DNA from: Escherichia coli
GTDB taxonomy: Bacteria; Pseudomonadota; Gammaproteobacteria; Enterobacterales; Enterobacteriaceae
Length of the DNA stretch: 64,000 nt
Strand: one strand, 5' to 3'
Assembly: GCF_003790525.1 (NCBI RefSeq)
Contig: NZ_CP033636.1
The position numbers were made by a program, and so were the translations under genes. Under the pieces are notes generated by a model, which saw nothing but the letters and a program-made list of their open reading frames with translations, was not told where the DNA came from and did not search any database. Within the stretch, counting starts at the first letter, position 1. Every line of letters begins with the position of its first letter. Shown in pieces: positions 2,848-49,547 of the stretch.

Positions 2848-3129
2848 ATGAAAATCAGCCAGCTGGAATCCGGGATGCAGGTTTGGTCTGTAACCCGTAC
2901 CAAAATGGGAAATACCACCATTACAACGGTCATTGTCCACCCCGTTGTCATTATAGAAATTCATGATAATCATGTGATTGCTCGCTGGAACGGCAATGCA
3001 CCACGTCGTTTTGGAGAAACGGCTATCAGGGGCTGGAAGAAGGAGAAGCCCCTGCTTGTCCGTGAACCTTTCGGAAATGCTCGCCTGGCCACCCGGGCTG
3101 AAAAAGCCGCTATGCAGGAAAAAGAGTAA
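2848..3129 (+). CDS. hypothetical protein (93 aa)
   Basis: ORF track; AAGGA RBS; inverted repeat CTTCTGGA-N14-TCCAGAAG lies upstream at about 2706-2737. Confidence 0.4.
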   Translation: MKISQLESGMQVWSVTRTKMGNTTITTVIVHPVVIIEIHDNHVIARWNGNAPRRFGETAIRGWKKEKPLLVREPFGNARLATRAEKAAMQEKE

Positions 3130-3344: not shown

Positions 3345-3950
3345 ATGACTGAATTAAATAAAAGCCCGTCCGGTTTTTCCGGAGCTGATGTCAGTAAAGA
3401 ACAGGCTGCCATAAGGGCACTTGTAGAAAGAGTAGTGACCAACTATCGCAGCCGGACAGCACCTGATCGGGTTCAAAAGGCTTCGGTAGCGTTTAATGGG
3501 GGATTAATCCTGACCCTGATGCTGGCCTTGTCGCTATTGGGCTACCTTGTGGCGGAATTGTTCAGGGGGTATGTTGCGGATAGTTCACCCTATGTGCCTG
3601 GTCTAAGTTATTCGCAATTTTCGATGCTGATGATCGTTGAGCTGTGTCTATGCTTTCTCGCATGGTTTTTGGTTGTCACAGGGGACTATCCCCGGCCGTG
3701 GATATTTCAGGTAGTCCCGATGGAGCAGTACTGGTTCTTTGACGAAGTGGATGACGACGATCTTGCCCGGCTTTCCTGTAACCCTTACATCAAGCGCTGG
3801 CTACTTGATGAAATGTCCGGTATTCATCGACTGACCTACACGAGGCTGCATGATCGACTGGAGCGCATCTGTAATATTCCATCCCATCTCGAATACAGCC
3901 GTATTCAGGCACATAAGCTTTCCCTAATCAACGGAACCAGTGCCTCCTGA
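3345..3950 (+). CDS. hypothetical membrane protein (201 aa)
   Basis: ORF track; AGGAG RBS; two long hydrophobic segments. Confidence 0.45.
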   Translation: MTELNKSPSGFSGADVSKEQAAIRALVERVVTNYRSRTAPDRVQKASVAFNGGLILTLMLALSLLGYLVAELFRGYVADSSPYVPGLSYSQFSMLMIVELCLCFLAWFLVVTGDYPRPWIFQVVPMEQYWFFDEVDDDDLARLSCNPYIKRWLLDEMSGIHRLTYTRLHDRLERICNIPSHLEYSRIQAHKLSLINGTSAS

Positions 3951-4282
3951 TCCTACCATTGCATCCGGAAATTAAACGGGCAGGAACTGCACTGTATGTT
4001 CCGACCAAGCAGCTGCCCGTTACCCTTTTCTTTAGTGTAAAAAGACTGTCTCCGACAACCGGAAGTGACTCATGTCAAATAAATTATAAATCAATGATTT
4101 ATGCAGGCAGGGTGTTTGGCTGATCAGGGCAGAGTGATATAATGACGCTGGTGCTGGAGGCTTTTGCCCCAGCCAGCGGTAACACTGTTTGACTGTGGTA
4201 AAAGCAGAAAGCCCCGAGTAATTTTTCAATTAACCTGTACTGCACCCATTTTGTTGGACGATGAAATGGAATAGCCCCTGAT

Positions 4283-4804
4283 ATGTCAAAGCCAAAATAC
4301 CCTTTTGAAAAGCGCCTTGAAGTCGTGAATCACTACTTCACTACTGATGATGGTTACAGGATCATCTCGGCACGTTTTGGTGTCCCCCGAACCCAGGTCA
4401 GGACATGGGTTGCCCTCTATGAAAAACATGGAGAAAAAGGTTTAATTCCCAAACCTAAAGGTGTTAGTGCTGATCCTGAGTTGCGTATTAAGGTCGTGAA
4501 AGCGGTGATCGAGCAGCACATGTCCCTTAATCAGGCTGCTGCTCACTTTATGCTTGCTGGTAGTGGTTCTGTAGCCAGGTGGCTGAAGGTTTATGAAGAG
4601 CGCGGAGAAGCTGGTTTACGCGCGCTCAAGATTGGCACCAAAAGAAACATTGCAATATCAGTTGATCCAGAAAAAGCGGCATCAGCATTGGAGCTGTCAA
4701 AAGACCGACGCATTGAGGATCTTGAAAGGCAAGTTCGATTTCTTGAAACGCGGCTTGTGTATCTAAAAAAGCTGAAAGCCTTAGCTCATCCCACGAAAAA
4801 GTGA
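4283..4804 (+). CDS. insJ: IS150 transposase OrfA (InsJ, 173 aa)
   Basis: Protein MSKPKYPFEKRLEVVNHYF... recognised as IS150 OrfA; A AAA AAG slippery motif at about 4765-4771. Confidence 0.85.
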   Translation: MSKPKYPFEKRLEVVNHYFTTDDGYRIISARFGVPRTQVRTWVALYEKHGEKGLIPKPKGVSADPELRIKVVKAVIEQHMSLNQAAAHFMLAGSGSVARWLKVYEERGEAGLRALKIGTKRNIAISVDPEKAASALELSKDRRIEDLERQVRFLETRLVYLKKLKALAHPTKK

Positions 4805-5652
4805 AAGTACTCAACGAGCTAAGGCAGTTTTATCCTCTTGATGAGCTTCTCAGGGCTGCGGAGATACCGCGCAGTACGTTTTATTACCATCTAAAGGCTC
4901 TCAGCAAGCCTGACAAGTATGCGGACGTTAAAAAGCGTATTGGTGAGATTTATCATGAGAATAGAGGCCGATACGGATACCGTAGGGTAACGCTGTCTCT
5001 TCATCGAGAAGGGAAACAGATTAACCATAAAGCTGTTCAGCGCCTGATGGGAATCCTCTCACTGAAGGCAGCGATTAAGGTCAAGCGATACCGCTCTTAC
5101 AGAGGAGAGGTAGGGCAAACCGCCCCCAATGTTCTCCAAAGAGATTTCAAGGCTACGCGGCCAAACGAGAAGTGGGTTACCGATGTTACTGAATTTGCAG
5201 TCAATGGGCGCAAGCTGTATTTGTCTCCAGTAATAGATCTCTTCAACAACGAAGTTATTTCTTACAGCCTTTCGGAAAGACCAGTGATGAACATGGTCGA
5301 GAATATGCTCGATCAGGCATTCAAAAAGCTTAATCCTCACGAGCATCCTGTTCTGCACTCTGACCAGGGATGGCAGTATCGTATGAGAAGATATCAAAAT
5401 ATCCTTAAAGAACATGGTATTAAACAAAGCATGTCCAGAAAAGGCAATTGTCTGGATAATGCTGTGGTGGAGTGTTTCTTTGGAACCTTAAAGTCGGAGT
5501 GTTTTTATCTTGATGAGTTCAGTAATATAAGCGAGCTGAAGGATGCTGTTACGGAATATATTGAATACTACAACAGCAGAAGAATTAGCCTGAAATTAAA
5601 AGGTCTGACTCCAATTGAATATCGGAATCAGACCTATATGCCTCGTGTTTAA
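4801..5652 (+). CDS. insK: IS150 transposase OrfB (InsK, 283 aa), expressed as OrfAB fusion by -1 frameshift
   Basis: Overlaps insJ stop by 4 nt; integrase-core sequence recognised as IS150 OrfB. Confidence 0.85.
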
Positions 5653-5693
5653 CTGTCCAACTTTCTGGGGTCAGTACAACCCGAGGCCCCTGT

Positions 5694-5909
5694 ATGCTAG
5701 TCACACACAGCGTAGCCTCTTGCCTGCTTAAATGCAAGGAGAAGAAGGCCATGAAAATGCCGAACCAACCCATTGTTTTGTGCATATTAATAGTTTGTTT
5801 AACGCTGTTGATATTCACCTGGCTCACACGAAACTCGCTTTGCGAGTTGCGGATGAAAGACGGAACAAGGGAGGTATTTGCTATCCTGGCCTACGAATCC
5901 GGTAAGTAG
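5694..5909 (+). CDS. mok: Mok (modulator of killing) frame, N-terminal in-frame extension of hok
   Basis: 71-aa ORF whose last 52 aa are the Hok peptide; KCKEKKAMK junction resembles R1 Mok/Hok arrangement. Confidence 0.6.
5751..5909 (+). CDS. hok: Hok/Gef-family type I toxin (52 aa)
   Basis: [52 protein letters not shown] matches Hok family signature (LTR..LCE....G..EV.....YE). Confidence 0.8.
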
Positions 5910-5916
5910 CTGACAA

Positions 5917-5941
5917 AGAGGGGGGCAACCCCCCTCTTTTC
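5917..5941 (+). terminator. rho-independent terminator hairpin after hok
   Basis: AGAGGGGGGC-AA-CCCCCCTCT followed by TTTT. Confidence 0.6.
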
Positions 5942-5977
5942 AGGGTGTGGATTAGTATGCCATCGGCACCTTTTGAA

Positions 5978-6014
5978 AGGGTTCCTCTAAAGCGGAGGAA
6001 CCCTTTTTTCTTTT
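5978..6014. terminator. second hairpin with U-tract (tandem or bidirectional terminator)
   Basis: AGGGTTCCTC-TAAAGCG-GAGGAACCCT followed by TTTTTTCTTTT. Confidence 0.5.
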
Positions 6015-6327
6015 AGTGAAAAGATTGTGGTTAGTAACGTTATGCAGGGTAAGCGTTCATATCAGCGGGCCACCAGCCATCTTTCATTCCCATCATGAAA
6101 TTGCGGTTCATTGTGCCCACAAACACTCAGCTGGGCACCGTTCCGCTTCATGCAGGTCCGGTGCATCTTCATTTTCAGACGCTAAGCTGATCGGGGTGCA
6201 TCGTGGAGCAGTGATGCCAGAGGGAGAAATTGCAACCGTGAAATCAAAACTTATCATTCGGCTACCGGGCAGTGGTACTCACCTGGCAGAGCATGTATTT
6301 ATATCCGGGCCTGGCTGATGCAGCCCT

Positions 6328-6546
6328 TCATACCTTCTGCTTCTCAAGGACACGGCGGAGTTTTTTTACCTGGGACGCAGTGGAAAGTGTGCCGGTTCTG
6401 GGATGGCATGCGCTTGCCTTTTCATCAGGTTTAAGCTCATAGGCTAATGCCAGATCGTTCAGAGCCGCCTCAGCTTTCAGCAGGGCCTCAATGGCCGTGT
6501 TCAGGTATACAGTTCGGCTCTCATGGTTCATCAGTATTGTCCTCAC
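6328..6546 (-). CDS. hypothetical protein (72 aa)
   Basis: ORF track; last gene of a leftward four-gene cluster. Confidence 0.35.
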   Translation of the reverse strand: MRTILMNHESRTVYLNTAIEALLKAEAALNDLALAYELKPDEKASACHPRTGTLSTASQVKKLRRVLEKQKV

Positions 6547-6576
6547 AAGGGTAAAATGACAGGCGATACCTGCCGT

Positions 6577-6933
6577 TTACCCTTTGTCTCCGTTAAGAAT
6601 GGCATTACGGCAGGCTTCCCAGATAACCTGGGCATTAGCATCACACTCCACGAACCCGCCGCACTGATCGTATATCACCTGGTATACCTCTGGGGGAATC
6701 TTCCCAGGCGCAACCGGAGTTGAGCGTTTGCCTTTATGAATCTCATCTGCGGTATCACAGACAGCGTCGAGATGCCGCGACATCCACTCAGATAATTTCA
6801 GACCCTCTCGATTTGCCTGTTTTACATAGCGAACCTTTCTGGAAACCGTAGATCGCATCTGAATCTGTGTCACAGCTGGCACATCTTCTTTCATGGCATT
6901 CTGTAATGCAGCTTTGGGCTTTTTCATGTTCAT
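6577..6933 (-). CDS. hypothetical protein (118 aa)
   Basis: ORF track. Confidence 0.4.
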   Translation of the reverse strand: MNMKKPKAALQNAMKEDVPAVTQIQMRSTVSRKVRYVKQANREGLKLSEWMSRHLDAVCDTADEIHKGKRSTPVAPGKIPPEVYQVIYDQCGGFVECDANAQVIWEACRNAILNGDKG

Positions 6934-6986
6934 GGTTGCTTTAAATTATTCTGGAGTTCGTCTGTTATAAATGCTGCCGTGATCTG

Positions 6987-31932: not shown

Positions 31933-32259
31933 ATGACTAAAAATACTCGTTTTTCCCCCGAAGTCCGTCAACGGGCAGTCCGTATGGTTCTGGAAAGTCA
32001 GGATGAATATGACTCACAGTGGGCGGCAATTTGTTCCATTGCCCCAAAGATTGGCTGTACGCCGGAGACTCTGCGTGTCTGGGTTCGCCAGCATGAGCGG
32101 GATACCGGGGGCGGTGATGGTGGGCTCACCAGCGCTGAACGTCAGCGTCTGAAAGAGCTGGAACGTGAAAATCGTGAACTGCGCCGCAGTAACGATATCC
32201 TTCGCCAGGCTTCCGCTTATTTTGCGAAGGCGGAGTTCGACCGCCTCTGGAAAAAATGA
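31933..32259 (+). CDS. IS629-like transposase OrfA
   Basis: [23 protein letters not shown]... HTH/leucine-zipper OrfA of IS3 family. Confidence 0.8.
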
Positions 32260-33146
32260 TGCCACTGCTGGATAAGCTGCGTGAGCAGTACGGGGTCGGA
32301 CCGGTATGCAGCGAACTGCATATTGCCCCGTCAACGTATTACCATTGTCAGCAACAGCGACATCATCCGGATAAACGCAGTGCCCGTGCGCAGCACGATG
32401 ACTGGCTGAAGAGAGAGATACAGCGCGTATACGATGAAAATCATCAGGTGTACGGTGTGCGTAAAGTCTGGCGTCAGTTGTTACGGGAAGGAATCAGGGT
32501 GGCCAGATGTACAGTGGCGCGCCTCATGGCGGTTATGGGACTTGCCGGTGTTCTCCGGGGTAAAAAGGTCCGTACGACCATCAGCCGGAAAGCCGTTGCC
32601 GCAGGCGACCGCGTAAACCGTCAGTTCGTGGCAGAACGACCTGACCAGCTGTGGGTGGCTGATTTTACTTACGTCAGCACATGGCGGGGCTTCGTCTATG
32701 TGGCGTTCATCATTGATGTGTTTGCCGGATACATCGTGGGGTGGCGGGTCTCATCGTCCATGGAAACGACATTCGTGCTGGATGCACTGGAGCAGGCGTT
32801 ATGGGCCCGTCGACCGTCCGGCACGGTCCATCACAGTGATAAAGGTTCTCAGTATGTATCGCTGGCCTACACACAGCGGCTTAAGGAAGCCGGATTACTG
32901 GCATCAACAGGAAGTACAGGCGACTCGTATGACAACGCGATGGCGGAGAGCATCAATGGTCTTTACAAAGCGGAGGTAATACACCGTAAGAGCTGGAAAA
33001 ACCGTGCAGAAGTGGAACTGGCCACACTCACGTGGGTGGACTGGTATAACAATCGACGATTGCTGGAAAGGCTGGGCCATACTCCTCCGGCAGAAGCAGA
33101 AAAAGCTTATTATGCTTCCATCGGAAACGATGATCTGGCAGCCTGA
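32256..33146 (+). CDS. IS629-like transposase OrfB (DDE integrase core)
   Basis: Overlaps orfA by 4 nt; DDE-type catalytic core sequence. Confidence 0.8.
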
Positions 33147-49449: not shown

Positions 49450-49520
49450 TGGGTCGATGTTTGATGTTATGGAGCAGCAACGATGTTACGCAGCAGGGCA
49501 GTCGCCCTAAAACAAAGTTG
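49450..49520. other. attI1 recombination site
   Basis: 5-prime conserved segment end ...GCAGCAGGGCAGTCGCCCTAAAACAAAGTT followed by first cassette. Confidence 0.7.
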
Positions 49521-49547
49521 TACGTAGAACTCGAAGGCAATTTAAGT

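Follow-up and report, generated by a model that had tools for sequence, protein, structure and literature searches.

The 64,000-nucleotide stretch of Escherichia coli DNA analysed here (from contig NZ_CP033636.1; hereafter the window) carries a hok/sok locus, of the type I class of toxin-antitoxin systems, that is interrupted by a complete copy of the insertion sequence (IS) IS150. The backbone of the window, judged by its sequence, is that of an IncHI2 plasmid. It is quite probable that an R1-type module was here split by one IS150 event, with the killing function most likely silenced, hok cryptic but intact, and the site chosen through a target preference of the element. A first-pass annotation, made from the sequence letters, had described hok and mok as separated from their promoter and the presumptive sok region as cut by IS150. 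Both descriptions hold, as 1.44 kb of IS150 lies between the ucb box and the mok Shine-Dalgarno (SD) sequence, and the junction falls in the terminator hairpin of Sok.

The empty site and the locus before insertion

The locus as it was before the insertion can be read from relatives that lack the element. An IS-free reconstruction, in which positions 4067-4235 were joined to 5682-6017 with one ACC kept (506 nucleotides, nt), is 100% identical, over 506 nt and in one piece, to IncHI2 pM160133_p1 (NZ_CP022165) and to CP070398. With such identity to IS-free relatives, the arrangement is not a chance pattern, and a single simple transposition event explains it. Comparison with IS150-free relatives had been named beforehand as the test that could refute the proposal, and it placed the promoter exactly where it had been predicted.

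The IS-free allele is 84% identical by alignment to the hok locus of the IncHI1 plasmid pHCM1. Both that locus and the hok/sok locus common in IncF plasmids are collinear with it through promoter, tac box, ucb box, mok SD and start, sok promoter (Psok), hok SD and hok, GC-rich hairpin, fbi box and terminator. Alignment of the excised sequence to these known loci, a check that the first-pass annotation had put forward, shows both promoters to be homologous in position. Many IncF plasmids that have a Hok toxin in their annotation contain the 433-nt IncF comparison sequence at 100%. This sequence is presumably R1 parB.

The Rfam model RF01794, which bears the name sok yet represents the hok leader in the sense orientation, aligns along its whole length (157 positions) to the IS-free allele with 81.1 bits (gathering score 59). 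The contiguous leader/Sok RNA motif was therefore whole before the insertion and is broken in the window, where it is split into matches at 4149-4235 (46.7 bits) and 5679-5753 (34.4 bits), both below the gathering score. A scan of the whole window at the gathering threshold returned no sok match because the motif is split, not because it is absent. The reconstructed 413-nt mRNA folds with nt 1-8 paired to the fbi region and with a hairpin between ucb and the mok SD (z -7.9), and the reconstructed native Sok folds into a 10-nt 5' tail, a long hairpin and a U-tail (z -4.2). Both folds agree with the structure of R1 hok/sok as described previously (PMC9841398). Going by sequence and folding, the locus before insertion looks like a complete, functional R1-type hok/sok module.

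The element itself occupies 4236-5678 on the + strand, in the same orientation as hok, and is exactly 1443 bp long by sequence reading and a coordinate script. Its ends are the terminal inverted repeats TGTACTG..., and a target-site duplication (TSD) of ACC adjoins its left end at 4233-4235 and its right end at 5679-5681, where the empty site has a single ACC; length, repeats and TSD all agree with its family. It differs from the IS150 of K-12 MG1655 by 17 mismatches in 1443 nt (98.8% identity) and is 94.5% identical to ISKpn8. Within it, insA (4283-4804, +) overlaps insB (4801-5652, +), which matches the IS3-family transposase model NF033516 with 348 bits, and an A6G slippery site for -1 frameshifting, AAAAAAG, lies at 4765-4771 (+).

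Anatomy of the interrupted locus and its predicted outcome

The toxin gene behind the element is intact. The clear Hok toxin that had been reported at 5751-5909 (+; 52 amino acids, aa) matches both NCBIfam (NF007279, 122.8 bits, cut-off 73) and Pfam (PF01848, HOK_GEF, E 1.8e-17). No second hok copy was found in the 64-kb window. A second hok/sok copy supplying Sok in trans was likewise considered and set aside, as none is present in the window and chromosomal Sok RNAs give no cross-protection (PMC9841398).

On the left of IS150 stands the hok promoter (4116-4143, +), with a -35 of TTGGCT at 4116-4121, a 16-nt spacer and an extended -10 of TGaTATAAT at 4135-4143. It is the best sigma-70 match in 3950-6100 according to a promoter scan (10/12, with the TG of an extended -10). 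The TTGGCT-N16-TATAAT promoter proposed earlier is therefore present, but at these coordinates and not at 4113-4142. It is followed by the 5' part of the hok leader (86 nt, 4150-4235, +), which is covered by the first Rfam half-match and is now fused to the left end of IS150. This part holds the tac box GGTGCTGGAGGC (4150-4161, +), the conserved mRNA 5' end, and the ucb or anti-SD box AGCCCCGAG (4210-4218, +). IS150 lies 14 nt past the ucb box and directly before CGAGGC, the mok SD box. Read on the sense strand, the insertion point is between ucb and the mok SD; read on the antisense strand, it is in the 3' arm of the Sok terminator hairpin. In this layout, the segment that carries the promoter, tac and ucb (4116-4235) runs into the left end of the element, whilst mok and hok, fbi and the terminator (5682-6012) lie behind its right end.

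The 3' part of the leader (5682-5750, +), placed by the second Rfam half-match and by alignments, holds the Sok target region, the mok SD GAGG (5683-5686, +), which aligns with the SD of the IncF locus, and the hok SD AAGGAG (5736-5741, +). The right end of IS150 at 5678 and the mok ATG at 5694 are 15 nt apart, as had been noted. Counted from the putative +1 at about 4150, the leader after excision has 98 nt before the mok ATG and 155 nt before the hok ATG, so the earlier estimate of about 110 nt has to be replaced.

Upstream of hok there is a mok-type reading frame with its own SD (5694-5909, +; 71 aa), whose GAGG and ATG align with the IncF locus. Its start, at 5694, is in phase with hok through a 1-nt difference after the ATG, compared with the IncF/R1 type. 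The in-frame Mok extension that had been described is real, and the same arrangement occurs in pHCM1 and in chromosomal hokC (REL606). An out-of-frame mok of the R1 type is present only as a truncated frame (5732-5905), which matches from profile position 14 with 54.6 bits against a cut-off of 110. From these sequences, the in-frame mok is a lineage trait and not damage. A frameshift lesion was considered as an explanation of the in-frame start and rejected, as pHCM1, an HI-like metagenome locus and chromosomal hokC are arranged alike.

The sok promoter was assigned by homology (5709-5737, -), with a -35 of TTGCAT (complement of 5732-5737), a 17-nt spacer and a -10 of TACGCT (complement of 5709-5714). 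The antisense TTGCAT-N17-TACGCT inside mok is thus present as described, as the complement of 5737-5709, and its position is homologous to that of the IncF TTGCGC-N17-TATCCT. From this promoter, the Sok +1 is predicted at about 5702.

The locus extends beyond the end at 5941 that it had first been given. A GC-rich 3' hairpin, GGGGGGCAACCCCCC followed by a T-run, is found at 5920-5940 (+) and is the IS421 target in related plasmids. The fbi box GCCATCGGCACC (5959-5970, +) is complementary to the mRNA 5' end in the mRNA fold. The intrinsic terminator of the hok mRNA, with a 14-bp stem and a T-run, lies at 5975-6012 (+; hairpin 5975-6007) by both terminator scan and fold. Terminators downstream of hok had been noted, but the true one is the hairpin at 5975-6007, with the stem at 5920-5933 being the GC-rich 3' stem and not the final terminator.

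Two features of the IS150 right end bear on what the junction may do. A terminator-like hairpin on the - strand, with a 15-bp stem followed by TTTAATTT, lies at 5601-5635 (terminator scan and fold), and GCCTCG at 5640-5645 (+), within the last insB codons, is complementary to the mok SD box CGAGGC. In a fold of the IS150-hok junction (5630-5760), 5640-5645 pairs with 5682-5687 in both the minimum free energy and the centroid structure. GCCTCG is kept in nearly all IS150-group right ends found beside hok; the Buttiauxella copy has GCCTTG. As separate observations, the right end (window 5637-5649), read inward from its tip, holds AAACACGAGGCAT, which is almost the same as the sequence surrounding the mok SD in the hok leader of IncF (AACCACGAGGCAT), and the left end holds AGCCCC, which is ucb-like.

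In the mechanism proposed, one IS150 transposition would have split the R1-type post-segregational killing module of the IncHI2 backbone at an ACC target within a hairpin with a dual role, providing the ucb-mok SD pairing on the sense strand and the Sok stem-loop and terminator on the antisense strand. In the R1 system, the mok SD of the full-length mRNA is kept sequestered by ucb, and pairing of tac with ucb after 3' processing activates translation (PMC9841398). In the window, the hok promoter, tac and ucb would be read into IS150, and the capture of ucb by tac could not control mok translation. In transcripts leaving IS150, the mok SD would be paired by GCCUCG, a substitute anti-SD without an activator. 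Native Sok would not be made. A Sok remnant of about 21 nt (about 5702 to 5682) is still joined to Psok, from which a chimeric RNA of about 105 nt would be produced, keeping the 5' recognition tail of Sok and ending at the IS150 hairpin terminator. The fold of this predicted Sok-IS150 RNA (5702->5592; -44.4 kcal/mol, z -6.0) has a free 5' tail of 15 nt, a GCCUCG...CGAGGC stem-loop and then the IS150 terminator. It had been suggested that a Sok-like RNA would be transcribed straight into IS150, and such an RNA does enter the element, but it meets the strong terminator-like hairpin 45-78 nt inside.

R1 hok without Sok is lethal even in a single copy, and chromosomal Sok RNAs do not protect against it (PMC9841398). 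As the junction is found in about 550 plasmids (see below), Hok must be silent or still controlled there. On the folds and the mechanism above, the killing function has probably been lost and hok is probably cryptic; a chimeric Sok-IS150 antisense RNA may persist. The conclusion drawn at first pass, that toxin and antitoxin RNA expression has probably been inactivated or rewired, is a reasonable deduction from the sequence.

Several points weigh against this explanation. The -10 of Psok, TACGCT, is weak and was missed by a generic promoter scan, its assignment being through homology alone. The junction fold on the sense strand is unexceptional overall (z -1.6). A terminator scan found no plus-strand terminator inside IS150 (4236-5678), so transcripts from the hok promoter (Phok) or from an IS150 promoter could reach hok; no convincing hybrid outward promoter was found at the IS150/hok junction, by eye or by promoter scan. 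Ribosomes that finish insB would unwind the substitute anti-SD, since GCCTCG lies in the last insB codons, and some translation of mok and hok would then be possible. The Hok ORF (open reading frame) is also intact in hundreds of plasmids, which fits a recent or neutral state but fits retained function as well.

One alternative is that the locus has been rewired but still works, with long transcripts from Phok or an IS150 promoter reaching mok and hok and retaining the fbi 3' end, the chimeric Sok acting as the antidote and plasmid maintenance continuing. In this version some 100 nt of the chimeric Sok would be perfectly complementary to these transcripts, and translation of hok may be coupled to that of the transposase. 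Besides the open path through IS150, it would account for an intact Hok ORF, fbi and terminator, for a predicted chimeric Sok that retains its single-stranded tail and stem-loop and gains a strong terminator, and for the full-length Hok ORFs in most IS-bearing metagenome hok loci. Killing, however, depends on a pool of stable mRNA that stays translationally inert until 3' processing activates it by way of tac and ucb (PMC9841398), whereas here 1.44 kb separates ucb from the SD and the substitute anti-SD comes without an activator. Further decay is also seen in several IS-bearing hok loci, with a second element at the hok SD, an ISNCY element at the ATG or truncated ORFs, and in many sister plasmids IS421 lies between hok and fbi. 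A rewired but working locus is therefore thought unlikely, and silencing of the killing function is the reading retained here.

Sister plasmids and recurrence of the insertion

An 80-nt IS junction is covered in about 700 plasmids, about 550 of them at 99% identity or more (IS150) and the rest belonging to a 95% class (ISKpn8). The corresponding 83-nt empty-site junction is covered in 569 plasmids, the IncHI1 type included. Four states of the locus all occur, namely no IS, IS150 only, IS421 only and both, and the window represents IS150 only. In many sister IncHI2 plasmids IS421 (IS186-like) has inserted into the GC-rich hairpin after hok, severing fbi and the terminator. In pTBMCR421 (NZ_CP034788), for instance, IS421 at 5634-6972 is flanked by a 13-bp duplication, GGGGGCAACCCCC, which corresponds to window 5921-5933, and this IncHI2 site is homologous to that of the IS421 beside hokC in E. 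coli B REL606.

Other sister plasmids depart further from the empty allele. In Enterobacter hormaechei IncHI2 NZ_CP156945, ISKpn8 (1098-2540) is accompanied by an ISNCY-family element at the hok start codon, from 2612 onward (GGCCAT/TGTTAACACC). In pR47-309 (NZ_CP040696, 2400-2560), homology with the hok locus begins only at window 5737, inside the hok SD, with relBE and metal-transport genes upstream. This arrangement is shared by a group of Citrobacter, Enterobacter and other IncHI2 plasmids, and PGAP names a DUF5431 family protein there instead of Hok. From its sequence, this group is another independent disruption of the hok locus. The Hok annotated by RefSeq/PGAP in sister plasmids (L002 2778-2897; pTBMCR421 5491-5610) is a 39-aa product, WP_223165953.1, whose start is placed inside the gene (window 5790-5909). 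The same plasmids hold the full 52-aa hok ORF with its SD, and carry no sok, mok or disrupted-locus annotation.

The ISKpn8 of NZ_CP156945, an Enterobacter-type IncHI2 plasmid, shares its nucleotide of insertion, its ACC and its orientation with the IS150 of the window, and its flanks are 99.9-100% identical to those of the IS-free sister NZ_AP025811. The window element is closer to K-12 IS150 (98.8%) than to ISKpn8 (94.5%), which favours two independent insertions. The same position has been used on the chromosome. In experimentally evolved E. coli B, IS150 was found upstream of hokC at REL606 16,972 in three lineages and at 16,989 in one (PMC5419217), and REL606 16,972-16,974 is an ACC that falls in the same alignment columns as the window duplication. 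The positions that this paper lists for trg/mokB and hokE could not be matched to these genes in REL606, and the hokC coordinates alone were used here.

Natural E. coli chromosomes also carry the junction. A junction assembled in silico from the IS150 right end, ACC and the hokC flank is present at 89/89 nt in them; among 5426 complete genomes, as many as 887 have 80% or more of the hokC junction covered, and for the hokB junction the number is 610. These complete E. coli genomes contain 6083 IS150 places, of which the hokB and hokC leaders hold roughly one fifth to one quarter. These genome counts, like the plasmid counts above, mix inheritance with independent events, which weakens them as a measure of recurrence. 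In K-12 HMS174, IS150 lies at the 5' end of the hokB leader, in the tac region (GTACA/GCC/TGAGAC). That site, with a GAG-type motif at the same offset, lies 69 nt upstream of the position at the mok SD where the insertions in metagenome hokB loci are found.

Metagenomes were scanned with the pattern IS150 tip GGGGTCAGTACA-NNN-CGAGGC, which returned 34 loci. All but three of them (31/34) are hok leaders, mostly with Hok ORFs, and their flanks form about 20 classes, which are more than 7% apart. The TSDs beside these leaders are ACC, CCA, ACA, AAC or AAA, and one locus has a complete 1443-bp element with matching TSDs and a left flank that bears ucb. The same IS150-type/hok junction is found in Buttiauxella noackiae. 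It came from a scan of genome contigs (298 Gb) with GKKCAGTACANNNCGAGGC, a pattern too degenerate that gave chance matches; among the matches listed, only Buttiauxella was useful. Viral contigs were scanned for IS150-group right ends with the flank unspecified, and 17 distinct flanks were obtained. GRGGC starts 4-6 nt after the tip in 7 of the 17, compared with a chance expectation of about 0.006 per flank. Hok leaders account for four of the 17 flanks, one of them inverse and abutting the complement of ucb, and several other flanks resemble the 3' arm and T-run of terminators.

The simplest reading of these sequences is that elements of the IS150 group probably prefer GRGGC at 4-6 nt from their right tip within hairpin- or terminator-like DNA, a description that the hok hairpin fits on both strands. 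A bolder proposal, which is regarded as tentative, is that the hok leader is a preferred landing pad of the group at which insertion detoxifies itself, with GRGGC being recognised, GCCTCG re-sequestering the mok SD and the inward-facing terminator of the right end rebuilding a Sok-like RNA. If true, this would explain why one fifth to one quarter of E. coli IS150 copies are in hokB and hokC leaders, and why the same site is used even by the IS150-type right end, described below, that accompanies a TacAT toxin-antitoxin pair.

The alternative of no target preference holds that recurrence reflects selection for the inactivation of a toxin locus that is costly, or else descent from a few ancient insertions with later spread and excision. 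The authors of the evolution study read IS150 insertions in hok/sok and ldr regulatory regions as the loss of redundant functions (PMC5419217), the 5.5% divergence between IS150 and ISKpn8 is little above the 2.8-4% divergence between the flanks of the IncHI2 lineages, and prevalence is inflated through inheritance. Selection alone, however, would scatter insertions, whereas in about 20 diverged hok loci, and for different elements of the IS150 group, one and the same nucleotide and TSD context is met again. Descent with excision must contend with empty-site sisters that have 99.9-100% identical flanks in both IncHI2 lineages, and with a window element that resembles the chromosomal IS150 of K-12 more than it does the ISKpn8 of the corresponding site. 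Non-hok flanks of the sample with unspecified flank have GRGGC at the same offset, and the IS3-family elements IS1397 and ISKpn1 target hairpins in a transposase-dependent manner (PMC1525189). An absence of preference is accordingly judged improbable, and target preference is the reading kept.

The IS150-type right end (about 40 nt) is also found travelling with a TacA-like antitoxin (PF08681, 90 bits) and a GNAT acetyltransferase. These passenger genes, TacA1 and GNAT, were named through Pfam, and NCBIfam gave no identification. They lie at a fixed 270-1010 nt from the tip, beside at least five different hok leaders at nine loci. At one of these, L148 (1222-5614, -), insA and insB of the IS150 group are part of the unit too, which has a complete hok promoter and leader as left flank. 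At three others, no transposase was found within 6 kb of the unit. The TacA/GNAT unit may be a 'transporter IS' that carries a type II toxin-antitoxin pair. The possibility that junction matches with no IS150 transposase upstream are simply a native leader was rejected at L148, where the complete hok promoter and leader abut an IS150-type left end. At eight loci, the sequence switches about 65 nt past the junction, after the hok SD (GCAAGGAG), to nTGTATGGGTCCACCACATATTGC. This switch occurs in three hok flank classes and looks like the end of another element with a fixed landing point in hok loci.

Other features, significance and comparison with known systems

Elsewhere in the window, a 93-aa hypothetical ORF at 2848-3129 (2549-2830 in pTBMCR421) is labelled by PLSDB/RGI, at 100% identity, as Brucella suis mprF, a defensin resistance gene; the label looks spurious. 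An ALIL pseudoknot at 32214-32330 (Rfam, 121 bits) is the frameshift element of another IS3-family IS, and an AAC_AAD leader/attI site at 49471-49546 (Rfam, 61.8 bits) indicates a class 1 integron.

The IncHI2 group counts among the major vehicles of mcr-1 and further resistance genes. That most of its plasmids have a broken hok/sok module matters both for models of plasmid stability and for annotation, where pipelines give just a Hok family toxin and an IS150 transposase and miss the disrupted antitoxin RNA. The pattern described here, with elements of the IS150 group at one nucleotide of the hok hairpin, joins K-12 hokA, the laboratory-evolution insertions and the plasmid loci in a form that can be tested. 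Should the targeting be real, a natural series of alleles is at hand (empty, IS150 only, IS421 only and both), and should the chimeric RNA also work as predicted, this would be a mobile element that exploits and neutralises the regulatory RNA of a toxin-antitoxin system.

A literature search returned no paper on an IS150-split hok in IncHI2 plasmids, nor one joining hokB, sokB and IS150. The nearest counterpart is K-12 hokA/sokA, which in MG1655 is annotated as mokA'(pseudo)-IS150-sokA'(pseudo). As in the window, IS150 has entered the leader of a hok-family gene, about 20-21 nt past the ucb GCCCC, and holds the promoter, ucb and sok remnant apart from an intact hok ORF. Unlike the window, the K-12 locus is chromosomal, has its IS facing the opposite way and lacks a clean 3-bp TSD as well as about 40 nt of leader on the hokA side, whereas the window shows a clean plasmid insertion with an exact empty allele. 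The K-12 event resembles the IS150-plus-deletion events described recently (bioRxiv 10.1101/2024.06.02.596822).

When E. coli B was evolved experimentally, IS150 was found upstream of hokC, hokE and mokB, and of ldr (Finn et al., 2017; PMC5419217). The insertion at hokC 16,972 aligns to the same ACC before CGAGG as that of the window, although those insertions are in the chromosome of a plasmid-free laboratory strain, whilst the normal role of the window module is plasmid maintenance. IS421, absent from the window itself, has its own chromosomal parallel, since the GC-rich hairpin that it occupies in sister IncHI2 plasmids is homologous to its site at hokC. Pedersen and Gerdes are reported to have described IS186/IS421 just downstream of chromosomal hokC, and also of hokE, in 1999. 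In the Lenski long-term experiment, parallel IS150 insertions in hokB/sokB have reportedly been seen, in work by Woods et al. in 2006 and Schneider et al. in 2000.

In comparison with R1 parB hok/sok, for which the IncF sequence presumably stands, the Hok of the window is 69% identical and the parts are collinear, whereas the window has a mok start in phase with hok, a shorter sok hairpin and an interrupted locus. As to the element, IS1397 and ISKpn1 of the IS3 family insert into palindromic units (REP), extragenic sequences that form hairpins, in a transposase-dependent manner (PMC1525189); the IS150-group ends seen here lie at the loop/stem boundary of hairpins. Their target is REP, whereas that of the IS150 group would be a type I toxin-antitoxin hairpin and terminator-like sites with GRGGC. 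Disruption of hok/sok by IS elements is already established, and the window is a real further example of it, not a new kind of system. The most interesting lead, and one that needs experiments, is the insertion site shared by these systems together with the complementary sequence and the terminator in the right end of the element.

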